Part shown: one piece after another, positions 1-12,210 of the stretch
Numbering within the stretch: the first letter of the stretch is position 1
Layout: each line of letters begins with the position of its first letter
IMG/VR virus record: IMGVR_UViG_3300021440_000003
Coordinates: 1-64,000 of that record
Source of the DNA: a virus
Reading direction: 5' to 3' (one strand)
Length of the DNA: 64,000 bases
Position numbers and translations under genes: made by a program
Notes under the pieces: model-generated
What the model was told of the DNA's origin: nothing
What the model saw: only the letters and a program-made list of their open reading frames with translations
The model's database searches: none

Positions 1-193
1 AAGCCTTCAGACCAAGCCAAGCAAGCCCAAACCAAGTCAAACCTCTACTGTCGAGACCCAAAAAACGCGCAGATGCAAGCTCATTTTGGCATCTTCCGAA
101 AATTAGCCTTGCCAAAAGGACGCTGTTTTACACAAAAAACTGTCATTTTGTAACAAGATGTAACGCTAAGTTGGGTTAGTACTCACTATCGAC

Positions 194-202
194 TTATCCA
201 CA
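194..202 (+). promoter_or_regulatory. Single perfect DnaA-box consensus TTATCCACA
   Basis: Exact 9-mer next to the IHF-like site; function not demonstrated. Confidence 0.35.
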
Positions 203-211
203 ACCCCCCTT

Positions 212-453
212 TATAAATCAACAACTTATTTGGATAAAGGTAGTAAGTCAGAGGTCAAAAATCGGAAAACAAAATAGTCAAATAGTTTGTTTTGATTCAA
301 GAAAACAGTGACTTAGAAGCCCAACTTTTGACTTCGGCAAGTGTTTTAGGGAAGAAAAGTCATTTTTTTTTCGTTCTGATTTCCCTCCTTATACGATTTT
401 TCAAAACACCTCTCGGATTTCCACTTGCTATCCACGTAAGTTGTTGATTTATA
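212..453. repeat. 17-bp perfect inverted repeat (212-228 / 437-453), each arm matching the IHF consensus WATCAANNNNTTR
   Basis: TATAAATCAACAACTTA at 212-228 and TAAGTTGTTGATTTATA at 437-453, in an AT-rich ORF-poor region. Confidence 0.75.
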
Positions 454-606
454 TAGACCCCCAAAAAAATCAAAAAATGCACCATTTTGGTGCATCGCCC
501 GATTTTCCTACCACACCCGACTTGCACTGTCAAGAAATTTTTGCTTCCTGACAGTTTCCTGTCATTTTTCACCCTATCTAGTATACTAGTATCGGGTACT
601 GACCCC

Positions 607-1158
607 ATGTTCACATCCAAAGTACCCCACTTGCACCCCGCCAACTACCACACAATCCTTACACTTGCCCAACGAACCAAGGGCAAACCCAACTACTCAA
701 AGAACCACAGACTGGTAATCACACCCACATCCGTGGAAGTGCTCTTGCATCACACCAACATCCTGATCTACCACAACGACAACACCCTCACCATAACCAA
801 TGGCGGGTGGGATACCCCTATGACCCGGGCATACCTGCGGGCTTACACGGACCACCCCCACCTTGCCCTGGACACACCCACCCGCATAACCCTCACCTCC
901 CCGGCCATCGTGCACCGGCCCAGATCCGACTTCACGAAGACAGTCCGATCCGCCAAAGTGCCCGAGGCCATGAAAGGGATGAGCCGACAATTCCAAGACG
1001 GCCCCTACTACCTGCGAAACCTTGCCCAACCCGTCACCAAAAGGAGCTACGCCTTACGACACCACTACCGAGACGCCTTCAAGCACAAGGAAGTGCCCTA
1101 TACCGGCCCTGAGATCTTCATGGGCGAACCGGGCTACATCCCGCTTACCCAAGCCTAA
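607..1158 (+). CDS. Hypothetical early phage protein
   Basis: ORF 487..1158; ATG at 607 preferred; contains ITNGGWDTPMTRAYL. Confidence 0.6.
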   Translation: MFTSKVPHLHPANYHTILTLAQRTKGKPNYSKNHRLVITPTSVEVLLHHTNILIYHNDNTLTITNGGWDTPMTRAYLRAYTDHPHLALDTPTRITLTSPAIVHRPRSDFTKTVRSAKVPEAMKGMSRQFQDGPYYLRNLAQPVTKRSYALRHHYRDAFKHKEVPYTGPEIFMGEPGYIPLTQA

Positions 1159-1178
1159 AACCCAAAAAGGAACCAACC

Positions 1179-1790
1179 ATGTCCGACCAACTCACCCCCG
1201 CCCAAGAAGCCCTTGCCGCCCCCTACGTGGCCAAATACACCGCCATTGGCCTGCGTACCACCCCCGAGAACACGCAAGACCGCACACTTGCAGCCAAGGC
1301 CGCTGAAGCCTTCTTGCGGGCTGACACCAACTTTGACCAGTCCCGCCCCTGCATCCACATCGACACCGCGTCCGACCCCGACCTCACACTTGCCCTCGGC
1401 CCCGACCACAAAGGCCAGGACATGAAGGCCATGTACATCGTGACCGGGACTTGGCCCCACTTGGTTGCCCTTGCCAAGAAATTCACAGGCAAGAACGACG
1501 TGTCAGACGCCTTCTGTGTCTCGCAGTACGCCGCCCACGCCCCGGCCCATGCCACCTTCATGCGGGACGTGCTTGGCGTCAAGGGCATTGACGTGCAGAC
1601 TGACGCCTTGGATGGCTTCTCTCGGCACTGCGGCGTCACCTTGATCTACGAAAAGGCCATCTTCGTTGGCGACCCACCTGTGGCCTTCAAGGAAACCGCC
1701 GATGGCAAGCTCGACCCGATCTACACGAACGCCGAGGCCCATCAAGCAGGCTTGACCACGCCTGAAGGCTTGCCCTTGGCCGATGCTTGA
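1179..1790 (+). CDS. DUF6745-like protein lacking the internal tetrapeptide-repeat region
   Basis: SD AAAGGA upstream; N-terminal LTPAQEALAAPYVAKYTAIGLRT and C-terminal FMRDVLGV...SRHCGVTLIYEKAIFVGDPP resemble the family's LTPEQ..W..I.LST and CGW..P.E.....RP segments (recalled, not searched). Confidence 0.6.
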   Translation: MSDQLTPAQEALAAPYVAKYTAIGLRTTPENTQDRTLAAKAAEAFLRADTNFDQSRPCIHIDTASDPDLTLALGPDHKGQDMKAMYIVTGTWPHLVALAKKFTGKNDVSDAFCVSQYAAHAPAHATFMRDVLGVKGIDVQTDALDGFSRHCGVTLIYEKAIFVGDPPVAFKETADGKLDPIYTNAEAHQAGLTTPEGLPLADA

Positions 1791-1990
1791 CACAACGCCC
1801 CACAGGACCGCCAAGAACGGCCTGTGGGCCTCCAAATGACCCTTGGCAAGCCCAAACCCCCATCCACCATCTCCAACCGCTGGCTGCCCCTTCCATGCGG
1901 CTCCACGCCCCAAGAGATGAACCCAGTCGGCAAGCGCATATTCGCCAGACTTGCCAAGCTGTGGAAAAAGCGAATCTAAAGGAACCCACC

Positions 1991-3025
1991 ATGTCCAAAC
2001 TCTCCATCGAACAATCCGCCCAAGCCATCCTTGCCTGCCCCGCTGTGACTTTCTCGCTCGAAGGCCCGCCCGGAGTCGGCAAAACTCACGGCATCTCCGC
2101 CCACTTGCGCGAAGCTGGCTACACCGTTCACATCATGCCTTGCCAGAACATCCCGGCCGAGGACACGGCAGCCTTGCCTGTGGTCAAGAAAAACGGGACT
2201 GTGGACTTCGCTACCCCCGAAATGTGGCACCCCGCACCCAAGACGGCCTTCATCCTTGACGAGTTGTGGAAAGCCCCGGACGACATTCTCAACGCCTTCT
2301 TGCCCATGGTGCACGGCTTTCCCCGCACCTACATGCACCATGAGTACCCCGAGGACACCATTGTTGTCGTGACCGGCAACGCTGCTGAGTTCCGTGTGGG
2401 AGACAAGTTCAAACCGCACATGGGCAACCGAGTGGTGTCCATCGAGGTGGATGACCCCACACTTGCCGAGGCCACGCAAGTCATGCTTGACCGGGGTGTG
2501 GATGCTCGCATCATCGAGTGGGTGCGTGTCAACCCGCAGGCTTTGAAGTCTTTTGATCCGCAGGCTCAGACGAGGCCCGAGACGGAGTTGATGAACTACT
2601 ACGGGTACGACCAGCGCCACCCCAAGCGCAAATTCTGCTCGATGCGCAGCTTGGAGCTTGCCTCCAACGTCATCAAGTCCGTGCCCGAGGGTGTGCGCCA
2701 GTCCTGCTTGCAAGGCGCGATCGGCCAGAAAGCCGCTTCCAACCTTGAACACTTCCTGCGCGAATCCGCAGAGTTCATCCCGCTTGCTGACATGGTGGAC
2801 GGGACCGCGAAAGTGCCCAAGCAACTGTTCGATCGACGGCTTGCTGCGATCACCGCAGCGTCCGGGCTTGACGAGAGCAACTGGAAGCAGCTGCTCAAGT
2901 ATGCGGAGCGACTTGGTTCGGAGTTGAAGCAAGTGTTCCTGCTGAACGCGAGCCGCAAGAAAGTGAGTGCCGACTTGCTGGTGAAGTCCCAGACGTGGCG
3001 AAACGAGCTTGCCGTGATTCTTTGA
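1991..3025 (+). CDS. MoxR-like AAA+ ATPase
   Basis: Walker A GPPGVGKT, Walker B FILDE, sensor VTGN, arginine finger MGNR; SD AAAGGA before ATG 1991; VWA partner downstream. Confidence 0.85.
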   Translation: MSKLSIEQSAQAILACPAVTFSLEGPPGVGKTHGISAHLREAGYTVHIMPCQNIPAEDTAALPVVKKNGTVDFATPEMWHPAPKTAFILDELWKAPDDILNAFLPMVHGFPRTYMHHEYPEDTIVVVTGNAAEFRVGDKFKPHMGNRVVSIEVDDPTLAEATQVMLDRGVDARIIEWVRVNPQALKSFDPQAQTRPETELMNYYGYDQRHPKRKFCSMRSLELASNVIKSVPEGVRQSCLQGAIGQKAASNLEHFLRESAEFIPLADMVDGTAKVPKQLFDRRLAAITAASGLDESNWKQLLKYAERLGSELKQVFLLNASRKKVSADLLVKSQTWRNELAVIL

Positions 3026-3028
3026 CGA

Positions 3029-3061
3029 AAGGAGGGCCGGGCGCAAGCCCGGCTTGCCATG
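3029..3061 (+). promoter_or_regulatory. SD - GNRA hairpin - ATG translation initiation element
   Basis: AAGGAGG (3029-3035), stem GCCGGGC-GCAA-GCCCGGC (3036-3053), 5-nt spacer, ATG 3059. Confidence 0.55.
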
Positions 3062-3211
3062 AGACTTGACAAGCCGAATGCTTATGTGTGGGACCAAGTG
3101 TGGGGCCAAGTGCTGGACCAAGTGTGGGACCGAGTGTGGGGCCAGGTGCGGGACCGAGTGCTGGACCAAGTGTGGGACCAAGTGCGGGAACGAATCAGGA
3201 GCAAACCATGA
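3059..3211 (+). CDS. VWDQ-repeat microprotein A1 (50 aa, MRLDKPNAYVWDQ...IRSKP)
   Basis: Hand-translated; stop overlaps the next start (ATGA). Confidence 0.7.
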   Translation: MRLDKPNAYVWDQVWGQVLDQVWDRVWGQVRDRVLDQVWDQVRERIRSKP

Positions 3212-3396
3212 AACTTGACAAGCCTGGTGCTTATGTGCGGGACCGAGTGCGGGGCCGAGTGTTGGACCAAGTGTGGGACCAAGTGTGGGGCCAAGTGCTG
3301 GACCAAGTGTGGGACCGAGTGTGGGGCCAGGTGCGGGACCGAGTGCTGGACCAAGTGTGGGACCAAGTGCGGAACCAAATCAGGAGCAAACCATGA
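3208..3396 (+). CDS. VWDQ-repeat microprotein A2 (62 aa)
   Basis: SD AGGAG, ATGA coupling, MKLDKPGAY...IRSKP. Confidence 0.7.
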   Translation: MKLDKPGAYVRDRVRGRVLDQVWDQVWGQVLDQVWDRVWGQVRDRVLDQVWDQVRNQIRSKP

Positions 3397-3628
3397 AACT
3401 TGACAAGCCTGGTGCTTATGTGCTGGGCCAAGTGTCGGTCCGAGTGCGGGACCAGTGCGGGACCGAGTGCGGGACCGAGTGCGGGACCAAGTGCGGGACC
3501 GAGTGCGGGACCGAGTACCGTACCAGATTCGGGACCGGGTGTGGGGCCAAGTGTCGGGCCGGGTGCTGGGCCAAGTATGGTACCCAGTGCGGGACCAAGT
3601 GCGGGACCGAACCAGGAGCAAGCCATGA
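3393..3628 (+). pseudogene. VWDQ-repeat microprotein A3 with a 1-nt deletion near 3453
   Basis: GACCAGTG instead of GACCAAGTG shifts into the CGTE/CGTK frame (stop 3635); repaired frame ends TRSKP* at 3628. Confidence 0.6.
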
Positions 3629-3800
3629 GACTTGACAACCCGAATGCTTATGTGCGGGACCACGTGTGGGACCAAGTGTCGTACCTAGTGTGGGACCAAG
3701 TGCGGGACCGAGTACCGTACCAGATTCGGGACCGAGTGTGGAACCAAGTGCGGGCCAAGTTATGTATATAGTGGTGGACCAAATCAATACCAAACCATGA
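3625..3800 (+). CDS. VWDQ-repeat microprotein A4 (48 aa to TAG 3771; 1-nt deletion near 3753, repaired frame ends INTKP* at 3800)
   Basis: MRLDNPNAYVRDHVWDQ...; SD AGGAG; ATGA coupling. Confidence 0.6.
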
Positions 3801-3943
3801 CACTATCCAACCCATACCGGCCCGGCCACTGGTCAGCGATGACAGCCCGTATCTACACCCTAAACAGTAACCTCTGGTTCTACACATCCCATCGCACATG
3901 GACCCCAGTGTGGGACCAAGTACGAGGACGAATATGTATCTAG
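3797..3943 (+). CDS. Diverged microprotein A5 (48 aa, MTLSNP...PVWDQVRGRICI)
   Basis: ATGA coupling; keeps a VWDQV unit near the C-terminus. Confidence 0.55.
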   Translation: MTLSNPYRPGHWSAMTARIYTLNSNLWFYTSHRTWTPVWDQVRGRICI

Positions 3944-4146
3944 GCGAACACAACAGGCACACCGTAGAACGGCTCAGCAGCAGAGTCTTATACGCATTGT
4001 TGGACATAGCGACCGATCAGATACCAAACCACGTGTGGAACCAATCCACCGAGATCACCTGGCAAGCCTGCTACCTAACAACCTCAACCATAAAAGCATC
4101 ATGTTTACTCAAGACGACCTCTCCAAACTCACAAAATCCCTCGTGA
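3934..4146 (+). CDS. Diverged microprotein A6 (70 aa, MYLGEH...HVWNQ...)
   Basis: Overlaps the end of A5; residual DQIPNHVWNQ. Confidence 0.45.
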   Translation: MYLGEHNRHTVERLSSRVLYALLDIATDQIPNHVWNQSTEITWQACYLTTSTIKASCLLKTTSPNSQNPS

Positions 4147-5324
4147 CCCGCTTGCCACACATCGAACCCTTCCTGTTCGTCATACCTATGCGTGTCCTCT
4201 CACCCGAGGAGTACCAAGCCAAGATCCCCGCCCACCTCCCGCAGACGGCGGCTTGCACCTCGACCGAGTTCCTGTTCCAGTCGGAGTTCATCGCCCAAGC
4301 CCCCGCCCCGCAGCAGCGCGGCTTGATCTTGCACGAGATTCTGCACGGTGCGTTGGAACACTTGTCCCATCCTTGGCGTGACAAGACGATCACCGAGGAG
4401 TCATTCTTCCGCTTGCGCAACATCGCCCAAGACGTGGTGGTGGAGAACTTCGTGGCAGAACTGTCCGAAGCCGACCAGCCGGGGGTTAAACCTGCCGACC
4501 GGTACATTCAGAACTTCATGCCCTTGCCCGACAGCTACGCCAAGTACAAGGGCTGGAACTGGCGTGATGTGTACGAGGACTTGCGCTCTCAAGCCGATGT
4601 GCAGCCCAACGATTCATTCGACCACCACGGATACGGGGACGACAACACCCCCGAGGCCGCGCAAGCCCGAGCCGAGGCCGAACGCTTGTGGAAGTCCGCC
4701 CAGAAAGCCTCCGAAGCCGCCCGCCAAGCACTGGCTGGAAACGCCCCCGGCATCGACAACATCGCTATCACAGCGGCTGCCGAGAAGGTGCGCTGGCAAG
4801 ACACCCTTGCTGACTTCCTGCAATCCATCCCCAGCCCCGAGCGCAAGACTTGGACCAAGGTGCGCCGCCGCCCCTTCTGCACACGCCAAGAGTACCGCCC
4901 GTCCAAGACCGGGGAGCAGCCCGCCCTTGACCACGTGTACCTGTTCGTTGACACGTCCGGCTCCATGCACGGAACCTTGGCCACTGTGGCCGCCGACATT
5001 CTTGGCCTGATGCGGGCCGTCCAAGTCAGCACACTGGAGATTGTGTATTACGACGTGGGGGTGCAGCGCCGGGACGTGATCGACTTCGACGACATGGAAG
5101 GCTACACCATCACCTCCATGCCCGGAGGCGGAGGCACTGCCGTGCGCCCTGCCATGGAAGAAGTGGTTGGCAGCCCCGACTACGTGCAAGGTGCTCCGTT
5201 CGTGGTGTTGACCGACGGATACGACGATTACAACATCGGCAGCTTGCCCACCGGCCCACTTGTCTGGCTGTCCTATGAGAAGCCCGTAAACAGTGACCGG
5301 GGTGTGTCCTTGCTGGTCAAGTGA
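4101..5324 (+). CDS. HEXXH metallopeptidase-like + VWA domain protein (DUF2201-like)
   Basis: LILHEILH and NIAQD in the N-terminal half; MIDAS DTSGS, GGGGT and VLTDG in the C-terminal half. Confidence 0.85.
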   Translation: MFTQDDLSKLTKSLVTRLPHIEPFLFVIPMRVLSPEEYQAKIPAHLPQTAACTSTEFLFQSEFIAQAPAPQQRGLILHEILHGALEHLSHPWRDKTITEESFFRLRNIAQDVVVENFVAELSEADQPGVKPADRYIQNFMPLPDSYAKYKGWNWRDVYEDLRSQADVQPNDSFDHHGYGDDNTPEAAQARAEAERLWKSAQKASEAARQALAGNAPGIDNIAITAAAEKVRWQDTLADFLQSIPSPERKTWTKVRRRPFCTRQEYRPSKTGEQPALDHVYLFVDTSGSMHGTLATVAADILGLMRAVQVSTLEIVYYDVGVQRRDVIDFDDMEGYTITSMPGGGGTAVRPAMEEVVGSPDYVQGAPFVVLTDGYDDYNIGSLPTGPLVWLSYEKPVNSDRGVSLLVK

Positions 5325-5331
5325 GGCTTAC

Positions 5332-5496
5332 ATGAGACTTGACAAGCCGGATAGAGAGGTGTGGGACCAAGTGCGGATTCCAGTGCGTATACAAGGGCGA
5401 TACCAATTGGTGCACCAAGTGTTGGACCAAGTGTGGGTCCAAGTGCGGGACCAAGTGTGGGACCAAGTGCTTGATAAACTAAGGAGTAAGCCATGA
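5332..5496 (+). CDS. VWDQ-repeat microprotein B1 (54 aa)
   Basis: MRLDKPDREVWDQ...LRSKP; GAGG SD. Confidence 0.7.
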   Translation: MRLDKPDREVWDQVRIPVRIQGRYQLVHQVLDQVWVQVRDQVWDQVLDKLRSKP

Positions 5497-5753
5497 GACT
5501 TGACAAGCCGAATAGTTGGGTGCTGGACCAAGTGTGGGTCCAAGTGCGGGACCAAGTGTGGGACCAAGTGCGGAACCAAGTGTGGGGCCAAGTGTGGGGC
5601 CAAGTGTGGGACCGAGTGTGGGGCCAAGTGCAGGGCCAAGTGTGGGACCGAGTGTGGGACCAAGTGCGGGGCCAAGTGCAGGACCAAGTGTGGGGCCAAG
5701 TGTGGGGCCGAGTGTGGGGCCGAGTATGGCCCCTAATTAGGAGCAAGCCATGA
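5493..5753 (+). CDS. VWDQ-repeat microprotein B2 (86 aa)
   Basis: SD AAGGAG, ATGA coupling, MRLDKPNSW...IRSKP. Confidence 0.75.
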
Positions 5754-5848
5754 GACCTGACAAATCGGATGCTTATGTGCGGGGCCAAGTGCAGGGCCAA
5801 GTGTGGGTCCAAGTGTGGGACCGAATCGAAGGCAGGTATGAGACTTGA
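5750..5848 (+). CDS. VWDQ-repeat microprotein B3 (32 aa)
   Basis: [13 protein letters not shown]...IEGRYET; SD AGGAG. Confidence 0.6.
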   Translation: MRPDKSDAYVRGQVQGQVWVQVWDRIEGRYET

Positions 5849-6020
5849 CAAGCCGAATGCTTATGTGTGGGACCAAGTATGGTACCCAGTGCAGGACCTG
5901 GTGCGGGGCCAAGTGTGGTACCCAGTGTGGGGCCAAGTGCAGGACCAAGTGCAGGGCCAAGTGTGGGTCCACGTGCGGGTCCAAGTGTGGGACCGAATCG
6001 AAGGCAGGTATGAGACTTGA
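5838..6020 (+). CDS. VWDQ-repeat microprotein B4 (60 aa)
   Basis: MRLDKPNAYVWDQ...IEGRYET. Confidence 0.65.
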   Translation: MRLDKPNAYVWDQVWYPVQDLVRGQVWYPVWGQVQDQVQGQVWVHVRVQVWDRIEGRYET

Positions 6021-6102
6021 CAAATCGGATGCCCGAGTGCAGGACCTGGTGCGGGGCCAAGTGTGGGTCCAAGTGTCGGACCTAATCAGGAGCAAGCCAT
6101 GA
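6010..6102 (+). CDS. VWDQ-repeat microprotein B5 (30 aa)
   Basis: MRLDKSDARVQDL...IRSKP. Confidence 0.6.
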   Translation: MRLDKSDARVQDLVRGQVWVQVSDLIRSKP

Positions 6103-6251
6103 GACTTGGACACCGGAATCTGGCCTCATGGAGCAGACTAAGAAGCCAGATATTGAGTATATCCGGTGATCTATCGTGGAATAAATCATCTACATTTATA
6201 TGGTCAGACGTGTGGCTTAAAGTATGCAAACGACTCAATAGCAAACCATGA
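6099..6251 (+). CDS. Diverged microprotein B6 (50 aa, MRLGHR...VWLKVCKRLNSKP)
   Basis: SD AGGAG, ATGA coupling, conserved termini. Confidence 0.65.
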   Translation: MRLGHRNLASWSRLRSQILSISGDLSWNKSSTFIWSDVWLKVCKRLNSKP

Positions 6252-6405
6252 AACTGGAAAACCTTACGCTAACATCCACTTGTGGGACCTTATCCGATAC
6301 CCAGTTATGGAACAAGTTGCAGACAGCATCCGCTCGCAAGCCCGAACTTGCACTAGGTACCGGGTGATTAGTGTGGTGTGGCAGAAAGTATGGATACAAG
6401 TATGA
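6248..6405 (+). pseudogene. Diverged microprotein B7, apparent 1-nt deletion after MKL
   Basis: Repaired frame reads MKLGKPYANIHLWDL...VWQKVWIQV* and is ATGA-coupled at both ends. Confidence 0.5.
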
Positions 6406-7081
6406 TATGCGGTAAGGGCATAGGTAGACTTACTCATACCTTAGTTTGGCGTAAGGTACCAGATTTATCCATAGTACTACTATTCTTCAGGTCAATTGGC
6501 TCGCAAGTAGAGCAGAGGATATATGGAACTTCACTATCCCTATGATGGCATTTTCGGGCGTATATGGACAGGTATCCGTCTAGTTACACCTTACATGGTA
6601 CATTACCACGGGCAAAAACTGGTGCAATACCCCACGGCCGGAAGCGTATGGGCTATAACAAGGAGAGATCGTGGCACTTGGTAATCATTCACCAACGCCA
6701 ACAATCGACTCCTTTTGGAGTCGAGTATTAAGGCAGGTAGTGAGGCAAGTCCGTATCCCAAGGCGAAGTCAAGTATACGACCTTGTATCGGACAAGATAT
6801 TCTACGTGATAGCGGCAAAAATTCTATGACTCTAGGACAAAGCGACAGGGCGTACCTGTCATCCATCTTCTACGGTATTCGTGCAGCCACAACAACATTA
6901 GGCCGCGATCTAATTCAAGTCCCAATCTTCGCTAAATGCTTTCTAGGAGTTAAACATGAAACTAGGTAAATACAAACTGCCCATCGAGCTTTCATTCAGT
7001 GACCTACTGTACTGGTGGGAGCCGATGCTAGACTTGTCCCACGACCTGTACCACGCCAGCCTTAAAGGACTCAAGAAGTGA
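6402..7081 (+). CDS. Five further overlapping micro-ORFs B8-B12: 6402-6545, 6523-6684, 6671-6829, 6826-6969, 6956-7081 (41-53 aa)
   Basis: Hand-translated, gap-free tiling; starts MICGK, MELHY, MALGN (GTG, SD AAGGAG), MTLGQ, MKLGK (SD AGGAG). Confidence 0.55.
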
Positions 7082-7704
7082 GCAACGTATTTCGCCGCCT
7101 GCTGCTTGACCAACTCCAAGGCAGGGGCTATGGCAAGTACGACTTGGAGTGGAACGTACGCTGTGACTACTTCGACACTGACGAGGTGATGGCCTTGGCC
7201 GATGCTGAGAACATCATGGAAATCGACGTGGAACAACTGTGGGACGAGTCTGTCGAATCCGCCCGCGAAAGTATGGACAGTGACGACGGTTATCGGTCCT
7301 ACAGCCCCGCGACAGCAGCCCGCTACGGCTTGCCCTACCACGGCAAGCGCAAGTACAAGCGACATACGGACGAAATGGCCTACTACCCAGCAGGCAAGCC
7401 GGGCTGGATCTTGGTCAAGCCGTACGTTAACAGTCACTTCGACTGCAACTTTGAGCTCCAAGGGCGGCAAGGCAAACACCTTGTCCTGACCGAGTTCGAG
7501 GGCCACGAGTGTACTGACTTGGAGACCTCCATACAGGATGGTGTGGTATCCAACGAGTGGTGCCGCAACTTGCTTGCCATGCTTGAGGAGTGGGATGTAT
7601 GTTTTACGCCACAGAACGCTACTGAGCATGTGAAACACAACATGGTGTTTCGAGTAGAGCAGGACTACCAGCAGATGCTGGAGGAGTGGGAGGAGGCTTG
7701 GTGA
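7078..7704 (+). CDS. Hypothetical acidic protein
   Basis: 208-aa ORF, GTGA-coupled, SD AAAGGA. Confidence 0.75.
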   Translation: MSNVFRRLLLDQLQGRGYGKYDLEWNVRCDYFDTDEVMALADAENIMEIDVEQLWDESVESARESMDSDDGYRSYSPATAARYGLPYHGKRKYKRHTDEMAYYPAGKPGWILVKPYVNSHFDCNFELQGRQGKHLVLTEFEGHECTDLETSIQDGVVSNEWCRNLLAMLEEWDVCFTPQNATEHVKHNMVFRVEQDYQQMLEEWEEAW

Positions 7705-7850
7705 GATTAGGCCGACGATCACCACGCGGTACACAGTACGATGTGTACCGAAAGTGTGCGCCCGTACCCATGGACGTGCTCAACAAATCATTTTCCATGC
7801 TATGGACCACGGTACGTGACCACGTATTCAAGAGGATTTTCAGGCAATGA
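7701..7850 (+). CDS. Diverged microprotein C1 (49 aa, MRLGRR...LWTTVRDHVFKRIFRQ)
   Basis: SD GGAGGAGG, coupled at both ends, MRLG start and VRDHV unit. Confidence 0.6.
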   Translation: MRLGRRSPRGTQYDVYRKCAPVPMDVLNKSFSMLWTTVRDHVFKRIFRQ

Positions 7851-8104
7851 CCACTTCAAAACTCTCTACATTGAGACAGCCCATTGAGCCGCTGCCTGAC
7901 AACTGGGCTTGGAATGACGGGTTCCCCACCTTGACAGCAGTTGCTGCGTTTTTTGTAGCATGTTTCACAGTTTACTGTCTATGCGAATTGGCAGCAAAGC
8001 GTGTCCAACGCTTGTTTCGTGGTACAGTCCCACACCCAGAGCAAGTGAAGATACTGTTGAACAAGGCTAACCGAGACGTGCGACGGAGACCCAGATGTCT
8101 GTAA
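7847..8104 (+). CDS. Hypothetical membrane protein
   Basis: 85 aa with one hydrophobic segment. Confidence 0.55.
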   Translation: MTTSKLSTLRQPIEPLPDNWAWNDGFPTLTAVAAFFVACFTVYCLCELAAKRVQRLFRGTVPHPEQVKILLNKANRDVRRRPRCL

Positions 8105-8316
8105 CCCTGTACGGAGTACCTGACCCAGACCCTGCGCTGCTTGACGCGGTGACTGAGTGGCTGGGTGACAGGGACGCCACGATACTGTGCCACCAGCGCA
8201 CACCAATCGACGCCAGACCTTGCCAGTACCCCGGCCGCTTGCGATACGAGCTTGTCATCAACGGAACTGCGTATGCGGCGTACCAAGAACGTACCGGAAA
8301 GATAACCCTGCCATGA
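8095..8316 (+). CDS. Hypothetical protein
   Basis: SD GGAG, tiles with its neighbours. Confidence 0.55.
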   Translation: MSVTLYGVPDPDPALLDAVTEWLGDRDATILCHQRTPIDARPCQYPGRLRYELVINGTAYAAYQERTGKITLP

Positions 8317-8654
8317 CGGAAATTCAAATAACGGTGCTCACGGAGCTGGCCAAAGGCCCGCAGCTCATGAGCCACCTCGACACACTTGGCGAGCGCCAAG
8401 CGCAAGGCCGACAGGCTGCGACCTACCTTGTCAAGCACCGATTCGCCGAGTTCATCGGCCAGAGCGTGCTAATCACCGCGAGCGGACGCAACCACTTGGC
8501 CAAGATCAATGGTGACCCCGACTTTGCTGTGGCCCAGCCGCGCCAGGTGTTCCACACCGGGCAGTATGTGCCCAAGGCATGGCATACGAGGGAGGGTTCG
8601 CAGCAAGCGGGCCAGCTCCCCAGCTTGCTCTTTGGAAAGCAACATGCAGCCTAA
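8313..8654 (+). CDS. Hypothetical protein (possible winged-helix N-terminus)
   Basis: ATGA-coupled start MTEIQITVLTELAKGP. Confidence 0.55.
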   Translation: MTEIQITVLTELAKGPQLMSHLDTLGERQAQGRQAATYLVKHRFAEFIGQSVLITASGRNHLAKINGDPDFAVAQPRQVFHTGQYVPKAWHTREGSQQAGQLPSLLFGKQHAA

Positions 8655-8832
8655 CCCCATCACCTTGCCTGTCAAGCAAGACAGGTGCCTCGGATACCAG
8701 TGCGCTGTGACCAGCCAGTGCGCCCGGTTCTCGTTTCACATCTGGCAAACCTTCGGACCCAAGACCAAGCAAGTTGCGCGGTACTGTGGCCCGGAACCCA
8801 AACCAACCCCCATCCTTCTGGAGAAAACATGA
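8644..8832 (+). CDS. Small Cys-containing hypothetical protein
   Basis: RCLGYQCAVTSQCARF...YC. Confidence 0.5.
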   Translation: MQPNPITLPVKQDRCLGYQCAVTSQCARFSFHIWQTFGPKTKQVARYCGPEPKPTPILLEKT

Positions 8833-9041
8833 CCTTCACCGTTTCCTACGACCGCCCCCTGCCCGCAGCCCGTACCCGCTCGCCCATGACCGCCGCCTTG
8901 ATGGAGATGCGTGTCGGCGGCAGCATTTCGCCCCTGACCAAATCTCAAGCCGCCAACGCGACTGCCTTCCTGCGCAAGCTCGGCGGCAAGGGCGCGATGC
9001 ACAAGGAAGGCGACACCTACACCGTGTTCAAGACCGCTTGA
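8829..9041 (+). CDS. Small basic hypothetical protein
   Basis: SD GGAG, ATGA coupling. Confidence 0.6.
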   Translation: MTFTVSYDRPLPAARTRSPMTAALMEMRVGGSISPLTKSQAANATAFLRKLGGKGAMHKEGDTYTVFKTA

Positions 9042-9349
9042 GCGATCGAGTAGTCGCCCTCTACAGGTTGTGGAACGAGGCGCACCGCGCCTTGTCCACG
9101 GGGGCAACCCTGCCTGTGGTGTGCGACGATCAACTGGTGCGCAGGACCTGGGCAGAGCTCCTGCCCGGCCTGATGCAGCAACCCGAGGTGCAAAATGCTG
9201 TGCTGGCCAGCTTGACCCCGCACCTGCGCCTCGCCCTAGCCGAAGCATACATGCTGGCACATGCTGCCCGTGTTGTCGAAAAAGGAACCCACCATGAAGA
9301 TCAAGATGTTGACGGCAGCCCGCCGTCTTTTCAATTCCCCCTACGTTAG
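9038..9349 (+). CDS. Hypothetical protein
   Basis: TTGA-coupled start within ORF 8774..9349. Confidence 0.45.
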   Translation: MSDRVVALYRLWNEAHRALSTGATLPVVCDDQLVRRTWAELLPGLMQQPEVQNAVLASLTPHLRLALAEAYMLAHAARVVEKGTHHEDQDVDGSPPSFQFPLR

Positions 9350-9449
9350 CCCTGAGATCAACCGAGCCAACCAGCGAAAGTGGGTCCGCTCCGTGCGCGA
9401 CCTTGGAGACAAGTGGTTGCTTGCCAAGTACCAAGGGAGGACCGCTTGA
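9294..9449 (+). CDS. Small basic hypothetical protein
   Basis: SD AAAGGAACCCACCATG, same as at the AAA gene start. Confidence 0.6.
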   Translation: MKIKMLTAARRLFNSPYVSPEINRANQRKWVRSVRDLGDKWLLAKYQGRTA

Positions 9450-9808
9450 TGGGCCACTACAGCGACTCGGAGCTGGTGGGCGTGGCCTTGGCCTCCATGA
9501 AGGCCACAGGCGTGCGCATCGTCAACCAGCTGGACCCGTCCAGTGACGAGGACGAACGACTGCTGGATGTGGCGCTGGATGAGCTTGAAAACTTCATCCA
9601 CGCGAACCACGTGACGTACGGTCCTCTTTACGAGGCCCCGCACCAGGCCATCATGGACGCCATTACCTTGGGCGGCTTTGTGGCCTGCCCTACAGCGCAG
9701 ACAGCCAAAGACTTGTTTGCGATTTTCAACATCCACGGCGAGACGTATGCCAGCGGGCTGTACGCCGAGATGTATCTCGACGGGCACCTCGTGGGAGAGA
9801 ACACATGA
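9449..9808 (+). CDS. Hypothetical protein
   Basis: SD GGAGG, TGATG overlap. Confidence 0.6.
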   Translation: MGHYSDSELVGVALASMKATGVRIVNQLDPSSDEDERLLDVALDELENFIHANHVTYGPLYEAPHQAIMDAITLGGFVACPTAQTAKDLFAIFNIHGETYASGLYAEMYLDGHLVGENT

Positions 9809-10108
9809 ACAACTCCGGCATCACCACCGCCGCCATCGTCCTGCTCATTGCGACAGCGGTGGCGAGCTACCTGGCTCTCCTGCTTGCCATCGACATGACG
9901 ATTGACCTGTACCACAAGTTGACTTCAAAGAAGGACCCGAATTGACCTACATCCTTGCGGCACTGGCCGCCATCTTCGCCGTGGCCGCGTACCTGTGCAT
10001 GCTCACCAGCATGACTGGCACTCAGAGCAAGTTGAAAACCACAGCCGCCTTGGCTTGTGTGGCAGGTTCCTTCGCTTGCGCGGTAACACTTGCTTGGAGG
10101 GTACTGGC

Positions 10109-10732
10109 ATGACCGAGATCACGATTGACAAAGCAGTGCTGGAGCAGACGCTTGATGCGCTGGAGAGCGTAGAAGCTCTGATTGAATACCAGTACACCGG
10201 AACGCGCGACGGTATGTCCTATCTGCAAAACACAACAGATGATGCACAGGAGGCGCTGATCACCCTCCGCACCGCCATAGAGCAGGCGGCGCATGGCCCC
10301 TGTGACGGGGGCGAAATTTGCCTTGGTTGCTCTCCGCGAAATCCAGACGGTAGCTGCCCAGATGCGCCACGCACGCCGCAAGAGTGCGTGGCCGCAAGCG
10401 CCGCCATTGAGCGCAACGCCATCGAGCAAGCTGAGGTGTTCCAGCCACTTGCAACTGTGTGGAGATGGGTCGCCATCAAAGACGGAAAAGCCATCTACCA
10501 GTACAGCGACAAAGGCTATCCGCACTTGTTCCGTCACAGTGCCGTGCAGTTGCCGACTGAGGTGGATACAGCCAAGCCGCTGACGGATGAGCAAGACCTG
10601 TTCGAGCAGCATATCCGTGCTTGCACAGTACACCACGAAGCCGCGCTACGAAAAGATGAGCACGGTCGATACAGCATGTGGATGACCAAGTTGCGCTGGG
10701 CGACTTGGCAAGAAGCTAGGAGAACGAAATGA
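10109..10732 (+). CDS. Hypothetical mosaic phage protein
   Basis: SD GGAGG before MTEITIDK. Confidence 0.6.
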   Translation: MTEITIDKAVLEQTLDALESVEALIEYQYTGTRDGMSYLQNTTDDAQEALITLRTAIEQAAHGPCDGGEICLGCSPRNPDGSCPDAPRTPQECVAASAAIERNAIEQAEVFQPLATVWRWVAIKDGKAIYQYSDKGYPHLFRHSAVQLPTEVDTAKPLTDEQDLFEQHIRACTVHHEAALRKDEHGRYSMWMTKLRWATWQEARRTK

Positions 10733-10965
10733 AGATAGCAACGCTACTGCTAACCGTAGCCCTTGCTGGCTGCGAAGTTGATTCAACAAAGGTAGATCAA
10801 TGTATGCGCCGGGAGATTTTCAACGAGTGCTTGAAAACAATACCCGCAGGGCCGACTAAGGCACACTACAACGACTGGAGCGAAGTCGTCGGCAAGTGCG
10901 AGGATGCCGCGTACTACCAAAGCTTGCGAAAAACAACGCAGATAAAACCGGAGTGCAGAACTTGA
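10729..10965 (+). CDS. Putative lipoprotein
   Basis: Signal peptide with lipobox LAGC; SD AGGAG. Confidence 0.65.
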   Translation: MKIATLLLTVALAGCEVDSTKVDQCMRREIFNECLKTIPAGPTKAHYNDWSEVVGKCEDAAYYQSLRKTTQIKPECRT

Positions 10966-11045
10966 ACACCAAGGTCAATCCTCCCCTTAAAGGGAGGTAA
11001 AAAAATACTTCACGCACAACGCAAATATGTTGTATGATTTGGCAC

Positions 11046-11183
11046 ATGGACAAGATGATTCGCACCAACTACTACTTCCCGCGCCAGATGCTAGACGCGC
11101 TCAAAGCCGCAGCGGAGAAGCACGGGTTGCCAATCAGCGAGCTCATTCGCCGTGCAATCACGGAGTGGCTAAAATGCAACTGA
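11046..11183 (+). CDS. Ribbon-helix-helix (CopG-like) protein, 45 aa
   Basis: MIRTNYYFPRQMLDALKAAAEKHGLPISELIRRAITEWL; overlaps the tnpB start. Confidence 0.8.
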   Translation: MDKMIRTNYYFPRQMLDALKAAAEKHGLPISELIRRAITEWLKCN

Positions 11184-12210
11184 CCTACAAGTTCCGTTTA
11201 CGTGATACCTGCGACAGTGAACTTCGCAGGCAAGCCCGCTCCGTCAACCTTGTTTGGAATTACTGCAACGAACGCCAGAAGGAAGCCGTCAACAAGGGAC
11301 GCAAATGGCCCAGCAAGTACGACTTGCAAAAGTTGACAGCAGGAAGCTCGAAAGAACTTGACATACACGCGCACACCATTCAGGGTGTTTGCCGCAAGTA
11401 CGACGACAGCCGTAGGACACACAAGAAAGCCTCCCTGCGCTGGCGTAGCAACAAGAAGTCGCTCGGTTGGGTGCCATTCAACCAAGGCACCGTAAGGTAC
11501 AGCAATGGGTCGTTCTGGTTCCGTGGGCGCGAATACAAGGCATGGGTCAGCCGCGACCTCCAAGAAGGTAAGACGTTTGGGGCTGGTTCGTTTAATCAAG
11601 ACTCTCAGGGTCGTTGGTATATCAACCTGCCCGTAAAAGTCGAATGCTTGCAAACCGCACAAGGCGACGCCATTGGGGTTGACCTTGGTCTAAAGGAATT
11701 GGCTGCAATCAGCAACGGAAGCAAGATTGAGCACCCTACTCACTACCGCCGCATGGAGCAGCGCATTGCCACGGCTCAGCGAGCAAAGAAAAAGAAGCAA
11801 GTCAAAAAGTTGCATGTCAAGGTAAAAACCAACGCAATGACTTCTTGCACAAAGAATCAACCAAGCTGGTAAAGCAGCATGGTGCGATATTCGTCGGCAA
11901 CGTAAAGCCATCCGCCATCGCCAAAACCCGCATGAGTAAATCAGCACTCGATGCTGGTTGGGCAATGTTTAAGCAGAAACTTCAGTACAAAGCCATTAGG
12001 CATGGAGTTATGTTTGCGGAGGTCAACGAAGCCTATTCAACCCAGACCTGTTCTTCATGCGGAAGCGTGGAGGGGCCGAAAGGTGTCGCAGGCCTTGGAA
12101 TAAGGCGATGGACGTGTAGTTGTGGCGCGGAACATGACCGCGACACAAACGCTGCACAGAACATTGCCCGCAAAGGACTATTTGCGCTTGCAGAAGGAGC
12201 CTCAGCATGA
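11174..12210 (+). pseudogene. tnpB: TnpB RNA-guided nuclease, frameshifted at an A5 run near 11824-11828
   Basis: N-terminal TYKFRL, RuvC-I GVDLG, zinc finger CSSC..CSC, RuvC-III DRDTNAA; one extra A restores VKNQRNDFLHK. Confidence 0.85.

Follow-up and report, generated by a model that had tools for sequence, protein, structure and literature searches.

A repeat-free relative of DUF6745 proteins and nearby arrays of micro-ORFs carrying the family repeat in a 72-kb phage genome

RESULTS

A DUF6745-like protein and the family repeat in separate genes

We analysed bases 1-64000 (hereafter the window) of the IMG/VR record IMGVR_UViG_3300021440_000003, a 72,401-bp phage genome that has direct terminal repeats and is rated 100% complete. 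The open reading frame (ORF) at positions 1179-1790, called ORF1179 here, almost certainly encodes a remote homologue of the DUF6745 proteins. It contains no copy of the tetrapeptide repeat of that family, and the same repeat is found in two arrays of micro-ORFs lying 1.3-4.6 kb 3' of it. We propose that ORF1179 is a divergent, compact DUF6745 member and that the family repeat is carried by coupled micro-ORFs, the products of which would dock onto it in trans. Docking is seen in a structural model, and we give this reading a probability of roughly 0.5.

1179..1790, + strand: ORF1179, a short, repeat-free protein of the DUF6745 superfamily with an N-terminal LTPAQ helical domain (ATG-to-TGA frame, 203 amino acids, aa)

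The sequence AAGGA is located 5' of the ORF1179 ATG. Two related IMG/VR phage contigs, L001 and L002, contain copies of ORF1179 that are 96% identical to it. Since the codon differences from these copies were mostly synonymous (26 synonymous and 8 non-synonymous changes for L001, 24 and 9 for L002), ORF1179 behaves as a gene under purifying selection.

Homology of ORF1179 to the DUF6745 family

The DUF6745 architecture described in the earlier note, with an LTPEQ N-terminal domain, a central tetrapeptide repeat and a CGW motif, was seen in family proteins. The family is represented in Pfam by PF20530, a model of 206 positions with a gathering cut-off of 27 bits. For comparison with ORF1179 we used 120 longer proteins that contain the repeat and were retrieved with one of the micro-ORFs (see the next section). 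Profile-profile comparison bore out the relationship. The ORF1179 family (3 sequences) aligned by hhalign with 30 of the 120 repeat proteins at 97.8% (E 1.1e-12) over ORF residues 1-179, and with 11 short relatives included the score was 98.6% (E 7.1e-16), the alignment reaching template column 267 of 407. High-confidence columns covered residues 1-47 of ORF1179, in the N-terminal domain. The neighbouring ORFs 487-1158 and 7078-7704, used as controls, scored 0.2% and 1.3%, respectively.

A search of 1.84 billion representatives with the ORF1179-family profile detected 119 proteins at E ≤ 1e-3, 10 of them at E ≤ 1e-10. The proteins P0133, P0135 and P0137, all of which contain PF20530, were found in this search at 2.5e-9 to 5.7e-8, and when 10 proteins from the search were scanned, PF20530 was over its cut-off in all five of the long ones. 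We also used separate hidden Markov models (HMMs) of the regions on either side of the repeat. Both the pre-repeat HMM (106 of the 120 repeat proteins; E 8.8e-6) and the post-repeat HMM (100 of the 120; E 1.1e-3) ranked the ORF1179 frame first among the 901 frames of the window, and the two matches stand in the correct order on the protein. The likeness of ORF1179 to the CGW..P.E....RP motif was weak by plain HMM and clear by profile-profile comparison.

The AlphaFold2 model of ORF1179, computed with 50 sequences, was compact and confident, with a predicted local distance difference test score (pLDDT) of 90.8 and a predicted template modelling score (pTM) of 0.86. Its top match in BFVD, a database of predicted viral structures, was the DUF6745 protein of Microcystis phage LMM01 (E 4.9e-5, probability 1.00, TMq 0.47). 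Comparison with other resources gave no similar protein: Foldseek against the PDB returned a best E of only 0.19 and thus no similar solved structure, a wide VIA-align search gave no functional lead (best Z 2.8, root-mean-square deviation 6.3, 117 residues aligned), the ESM Atlas yielded no usable feature match (TM ≤ 0.38), and scans with Pfam, PHROGs, NCBIfam and PADLOC assigned no family to ORF1179. From the hhalign comparison, the profile search, the separate HMMs and the fold match we therefore regard ORF1179 as a remote DUF6745 homologue, and we hold the homology of the scaffold to be practically assured.

The part of the family protein that is present can be delimited. ORF1179 contains the N-terminal LTxEQ..(W/Y)..GL.T helical domain, which is outside the Pfam model, and the start of the PF20530 domain (approximately positions 1-67), with the post-repeat helix and the GWWWPF..ERP..RLH segment. 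The earlier note had recognised both ends of the family in this ORF. The N-terminal domain is indeed there, but the CGW motif lies near positions 25-67 of the 206 positions of PF20530 and is not the C-terminal end of the family. Positions ~68-206, about 140 residues, are missing from ORF1179, and the alignment stops at residue 179 of 203. No other frame of the genome matched this missing C-terminal part in the PF20530 search or with the HMMs. ORF 487-1158 was ruled out as its supplier by the hhalign score given above, as was ORF 7078-7704, for which the HMM gave E 2.7. The latter ORF (208 aa) directly follows the second array and is absent from L001; the resemblance of its N-terminus to the YGxHDAGW motif found after the repeat is slight and not significant. 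Because two thirds of the Pfam domain are also absent, ORF1179 is not simply a family protein minus the repeat. The same truncated, repeat-free layout was observed in a subfamily of proteins of 180-240 aa (P0123-P0132).

Identity of the micro-ORF repeat with the DUF6745 repeat

The earlier note had stated that the repeat lacking from ORF1179 is encoded downstream in stand-alone genes. We found no (xQVx)n repeat in the 203-aa frame, and the arrays downstream contain a repeat that corresponds phase by phase to that of the family. A search with micro-ORF B2 detected 138 longer proteins at E ≤ 1e-3. Among the best 120 of these 138, PF20530 was present in 104, and the longer relatives show the order N-domain, (xQVx)n, then DUF6745 domain. 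Residue use in the four phases of the repeat was Q 0.70 / V / W 0.56, R 0.22 / D 0.46, G 0.33 in the micro-ORFs of the window and Q 0.96 / V / R 0.31, W 0.31, G 0.20 / D 0.47, G 0.26 in the 120 long proteins, the V at the second position being fixed by the method used to count units. There is very little doubt that the micro-ORF repeat is the repeat of the DUF6745 family.

At least 367 IMG/VR loci contain this repeat in coding form. Matches to DUF6745 frequently extend to the edge of a contig, and one complete IMG/VR record of 127.5 kb (L046, L067) has the gene running across both of its ends. As assemblies seem to break inside the repeat, the size of the family is probably underestimated. A search of one literature library found no paper that names DUF6745, and a search on tetrapeptide-repeat, tandem, translationally coupled small ORFs of phages found nothing relevant by title or abstract. 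Stand-alone QV-repeat microproteins of 55-87 aa (P0251-P0258) were also noticed, mostly on short contigs.

Organization of the micro-ORF arrays

The repeat arrays extend over 3059-3943 (array A) and 5332-6367 (array B) and together hold 12 cassettes, each consisting of an MRLDKP head, a variable (xQVx)n core and an IRSKP tail. Tandem Repeats Finder (TRF) reported a 12-nt unit, GTGTGGGACCAA, together with periods of cassette size (149-185 nt, 80-91% matches). A profile of the microproteins matched 13 places in the genome, all on the + strand and between 3059 and 6420. The elements of the arrays are the following.

3036..3053, + strand: hairpin with a perfect 7-bp stem and a GCAA loop, located 3' of AAAGGAGG and 5' of the first micro-ORF start (read from the sequence)
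3059..3211, + strand: micro-ORF A1, 50 aa, the partner used in co-folding (microprotein profile, E 3.9e-24)
3208..3396, + strand: micro-ORF A2, 62 aa; AGGAG present, stop and start overlapping in ATGA (TRF period 185, 91% matches with neighbours)
3393..3635, + strand: micro-ORF A3, split over two frames (microprotein profile, frame reading)
3625..3771, + strand: micro-ORF A4, 48 aa, repeat degenerating (microprotein profile)
3797..3943, + strand: micro-ORF A5, 48 aa, largely unique, one VWDQV being left of the repeat (RNA-library contig over 3821-3956)
5332..5496, + strand: micro-ORF B1, 54 aa (microprotein profile)
5493..5753, + strand: micro-ORF B2, 86 aa, the longest repeat and the query that retrieved the DUF6745 proteins (microprotein profile)
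5750..5848, + strand: micro-ORF B3, 32 aa, second junction type (microprotein profile)
5838..6020, + strand: micro-ORF B4, 60 aa (microprotein profile, E 6.1e-27)
6010..6102, + strand: micro-ORF B5, 30 aa (microprotein profile)
6099-6251 and 6248-6367, + strand: micro-ORFs B6 and B7, almost repeat-free with coupled starts kept (RNA-library contigs over 6121-6337)
6956..7081, + strand: 41-aa ORF closing array B, conserved in L001 (9 synonymous and 6 non-synonymous codon changes)

ATGA was found at all 12 cassette starts. AGGAG is located within 20 nt 5' of 6 of the 12, and weaker sites resembling a Shine-Dalgarno (SD) sequence (GGAG, GAGG or AAGG) are located at 3 more; the junctions between cassettes are mostly 4-nt stop-start overlaps. 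The arrays of L001 differ from those of the window in cassette number and sequence but have the same reading frame and junctions, with MRLDKP at the heads and IRS(K/R)P at the tails. The arrays thus differ between phages that are about 90% identical elsewhere, the proteins encoded by the flanking AAA+ and VWA genes being 95-96% identical in L001. From these features of the sequence, the microproteins are candidate translated products of coupled micro-ORFs. The pure-repeat parts of the arrays were without cover in two RNA libraries, a result that carries no weight in our reading.

Some further features of the arrays were observed. The hairpin that follows AAAGGAGG (window 3028-3059) may bring the SD sequence near the start or regulate entry into the array. 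The remaining QV frame of A3 ends in the usual RSKP tail, as in a broken copy or a hybrid product. Every cassette also contains an ATG-to-TGA ORF in a second frame with Cys-rich repeats of the CGTK type (window 3078-3403 and 5769-6102), and in the PF20530 protein P0042 all three frames of the repeat are read within one protein. The 3' cassettes of array B (6099-7081) are richer in AT (GC 0.46-0.47, compared with ~0.6) and almost repeat-free, with the ATGA starts kept. In two DNA runs, contigs join across parts of the arrays (3356-4060, 3646-5639 and 5468-5543, skipping 703, 1992 and 74 bases); such joints may reflect arrays of differing length in the phage population or, alternatively, misassembly within repeats, and they too carry no weight in our reading.

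Possible supply of the repeat in trans

Taken together, the two kinds of genes correspond to consecutive segments of the single-chain relatives, the scaffold aligning with the flanks on the N and C sides and the micro-ORFs with the repeat. In the window, L001 and L002 alike, the scaffold and both arrays share one strand and are no more than 5 kb apart. We examined 83 loci (L083 and L001 being one contig), which contained 101 stop-to-stop frames with at least 4 repeat units. Fifteen of these frames were no longer than 130 aa, and all 15 were in L001/L083 and L002, with none in the 80 cis-repeat DUF6745 loci. Scans of IMG/VR with the DNA motif of the cassette junction detected the L001 contig only. 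Scans meant to place the distant short relatives in their gene context, made with alignments and with P0240 and P0245 (viral), P0125 (metagenome) and P0241 (genomes), found no relative. The suggestion of the earlier note that the variable module has been externalised gains support in one respect, stand-alone repeat ORFs occurring in the loci examined only where the scaffold is repeat-free, but not in another, as more than the repeat is absent from the ORF.

The co-folding proposed in the earlier note was carried out with micro-ORF A1 and predicted a complex. ORF1179 and A1, with alignments of 11 and 15 rows, respectively, gave an ipSAE interface score of 0.77 (runs 0.73, 0.81 and 0.77), compared with 0.00 for the best of 3 controls. 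The mark applied was reached by 58 of 80 solved complexes and by 2 of 110 mismatched pairs. The runs agreed in at least 96% of contacts, with a partner pLDDT of at least 82. In the models the tightest contacts were between A1 residues 34-46 and ORF1179 helices 13-25 and 117-128, the latter being the helix that follows the repeat in cis relatives, and the tail of the microprotein contacted ORF1179 residues 176-180. With one model and one lineage to judge from, we consider the chances about even that the microproteins dock onto the ORF1179 scaffold.

If the repeat is supplied in trans, ORF1179 would be a compact, divergent member of the DUF6745 superfamily, belonging to the 180-240-aa subfamily and devoid of the repeat and the C-terminal two thirds, and the family repeat would be encoded here as about 12 translationally coupled micro-ORFs. 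The two arrays would change fast through 12-nt slippage and duplication of whole cassettes. The helical microproteins would dock between ORF1179 helices 13-25 and 117-128, at a site that would adjoin the place of the cis repeat in relatives, and one core could in this way be fitted with interchangeable, fast-evolving arms. A role of the module in phage-host conflict is likely, judging solely from the hypervariability and the early-region position. A bolder version is a combinatorial system in which one DUF6745-like socket would accept any of the dozen hypervariable helical microproteins; reshuffling of the microprotein genes by 12-nt slippage and cassette duplication would then yield a fast-evolving set of heteromeric early proteins for host conflict. 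We regard this version as doubtful.

Genes flanking the arrays

The arrays directly follow two genes that resemble a MoxR/VWA pair.

1991..3025, + strand: MoxR-like AAA+ ATPase (phrog_1297, E 1.5e-28; Pfam AAA_5 at 17.5 bits, below the cut-off of 22)
4101..5324, + strand: metallopeptidase-like (HExxH) and VWA protein of the N4 gp25 type (PF09967, PF13203, phrog_1314, E 3.6e-37)

The AAA+ frame is open from 1787, its likely start is the ATG at 1991, and the protein is 96% identical in L001 and L002. The HExxH-VWA protein scored 40.9 bits with PF09967 (cut-off 26.4) and 28.2 bits with PF13203 (cut-off 23.2). An AAA+ gene next to a gene for a VWA protein with an N-terminal HExxH domain is the layout of a MoxR/VWA pair, the AAA+ protein being identified by phrog_1297 alone. 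The order ATPase - X - VWA - ... - DNA polymerase is also found in N4-like phages, e.g. Acinetobacter phage Presley. DUF2201 was detected in 1 of 50 records searched, namely in the close relative L001. The other 49, all DUF6745-phage records drawn from the 80 fetched and including 22 that are at least 90% complete, did not contain it. By tblastn against 82 loci, the AAA+ and VWA proteins were found in L001 and L002 only. These DUF2201 counts and the tblastn result ruled out that DUF6745 generally travels with MoxR/VWA. From the N4-like gene order and the rarity of DUF2201 in DUF6745 phages we therefore read the AAA+/VWA pair as a conserved N4-like core that need not belong to the module, and the arrays as having grown into intergenic gaps.

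Evaluation of alternative explanations

Several results weigh against the reading in which ORF1179 receives the repeat from the micro-ORFs. The search with the Pfam model that the earlier note had proposed was negative: hmmscan gave no PF20530 match to ORF1179 at E ≤ 1, the whole 72.4-kb genome had 0 matches, and PF20530 was found in none of the 5 short relatives scanned (E ≤ 0.1). ORF1179 fails this check because the PF20530 model covers only the part of the protein after the repeat; residues 222-409 of P0024, for example, align to profile positions 25-202. An RNA-library contig spans 1484-1684 in ORF1179 with 0 mismatches and may come from DNA carry-over, as may the RNA-library contigs of the arrays, which cover unique cassettes only (3821-3956, 6121-6337 and onward). 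The 12-mer repeat is open in all three plus-strand frames, and A3 contains a 1-nt shift near 3455, with the head in the QV frame and the remaining QV frame at 3455-3628. The evidence for supply in trans is confined to one phage lineage. The calibration of the co-fold score is only rough, because alignments of our own making were used, and the pass may come from the two chains jointly resembling the single-chain family protein. In the AlphaFold2 model of a cis protein the repeat forms a low-confidence helix (residues 83-200, pLDDT < 50) that is not docked on the domains, and a conservation test gave no signal for the predicted interface (0.31 for interface residues and 0.33 for the rest, p 0.48). 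The repeat-free full-length proteins P0133, P0135, P0146 and P0153 are all four ordinary PF20530 proteins; since complete-looking repeat-free DUF6745 proteins are common, absence of the repeat need not mean that there is a trans partner or any compensation. Finally, other metagenomes contain stand-alone QV-repeat microproteins whose heads and tails differ; of 55 candidates, 9 reached E ≤ 1e-3.

The results on docking, conservation, repeat-free members and stand-alone microproteins favour an explanation in which ORF1179 is self-sufficient and the arrays are independent, fast-evolving microproteins, or a minisatellite derived from the DUF6745 repeat, with their own targets and no binding to ORF1179; that ORF1179 alone folds with the high pLDDT reported above agrees with it as well. 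The co-fold score, however, drops to 0.00 when either chain is replaced, the short repeat ORFs among the 83 loci are limited to the lineage with the repeat-free scaffold, and all parts lie together on the same strand. We consider independent function possible, at clearly less than even odds. The position of the arrays directly after the AAA+ and peptidase-VWA genes raises another explanation, in which the microproteins are clients or substrates of the MoxR-like AAA+ and metallopeptidase-VWA proteins, to be processed or loaded, and ORF1179 is incidental. Conserved heads and tails that flank a variable cassette core would suit such clients, and a passage in Iyer et al. 2021 (PMC7824862) on the phage MoxR-VWA pair with a fused metallopeptidase assigns to it a putative chaperone function with peptidolytic processing. 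Phage Presley nevertheless has the AAA+ - X - VWA order without arrays, and in the records and loci searched the DUF2201 and tblastn results place the pair with DUF6745 in the present lineage only. We consider this explanation improbable. Least probable, and hardly to be expected, is that the arrays are untranslated 12-nt repeats of DNA or RNA, serving as protein-binding or recombination-prone satellites, with the ORFs a by-product. The three open frames of the 12-mer, the frameshifted cassette and the contig joints of the DNA runs within the arrays would be in line with it. On the other side, starts, SD sites, ATGA overlaps and the QV frame are kept in L001 despite differing sequences, Q and V occupy constant phases, just as they do in hundreds of genuine DUF6745 proteins, and the same repeat is plainly coding in the many IMG/VR loci counted above.

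Comparison with known systems

The cis-repeat PF20530 proteins, such as P0024 of Williamsia sp. DF01-3 and the protein of Microcystis phage LMM01, share with ORF1179 the LTPEQ N-domain, the post-repeat helix, the GWWWPF/ERP/RLH segment and the fold, and share with the micro-ORFs the tetrapeptide repeat; a location among early and replication genes, in phages and proviruses, is a further common feature. Unlike these proteins, ORF1179 is repeat-free, is without positions ~68-206 and falls under the Pfam threshold, and the repeat is in separate small genes. A model of full-length P0024 compared with solved structures matched generic coiled coils only (Z ≤ 4.4). The repeat-free full-length proteins P0133, P0135, P0146 and P0153 resemble ORF1179 in having no repeat, a homologous N-domain and a homologous domain start, but retain the greater part or the whole of the 206-position domain, scoring 66-139 bits with Pfam. 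The N4 gp24/gp25-type pair of MoxR AAA+ and metallopeptidase-VWA proteins matches the flanking genes (phrog_1297, PF13203 with PF09967) and their order as in Presley, whereas known MoxR/VWA pairs have no micro-ORF arrays and no DUF6745-like neighbour.

Tandem-repeat contingency loci and cassette diversification resemble the arrays in that short in-frame repeats are quickly altered through slippage and unequal crossover. Contingency loci vary the repeats inside one surface protein; in the present phage the units are coupled genes of their own, with products predicted to fit onto one shared protein. Phages often encode DUF6745 repeat proteins, and a lineage that separates the family core from the hypervariable repeat is a natural experiment. 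If the microproteins bind the core, this lineage would reveal the contacts of the repeat, would indicate that a library of coupled micro-genes can arise by release of short in-frame repeats, and would provide small soluble parts for the biochemistry of DUF6745. The arrays are also a test case for the reality of tandem micro-ORF genes in phage early regions. Should the combinatorial version be true, a hypervariable repeat would have been fissioned into a gene library, a mode of diversification not described so far.

The phage and its genome

No GenBank phage gave a megablast match to window positions 1-12000 or a tblastn match to ORF1179. The DNA of this phage is found repeatedly in freshwater metagenome runs, and its long ORFs encode replication proteins, namely a DNA polymerase, a primase, a helicase and a protein resembling SbcC. 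The cis DUF6745 gene of two other phages has early and replication genes around it, for an endonuclease, a DnaB-like helicase and a Mom-like protein. The phage may be Schitoviridae-like, given its 72-kb genome, the terminal repeats and the homologues of the N4-like ATPase and HExxH-VWA protein (window 1991-5324; L084).

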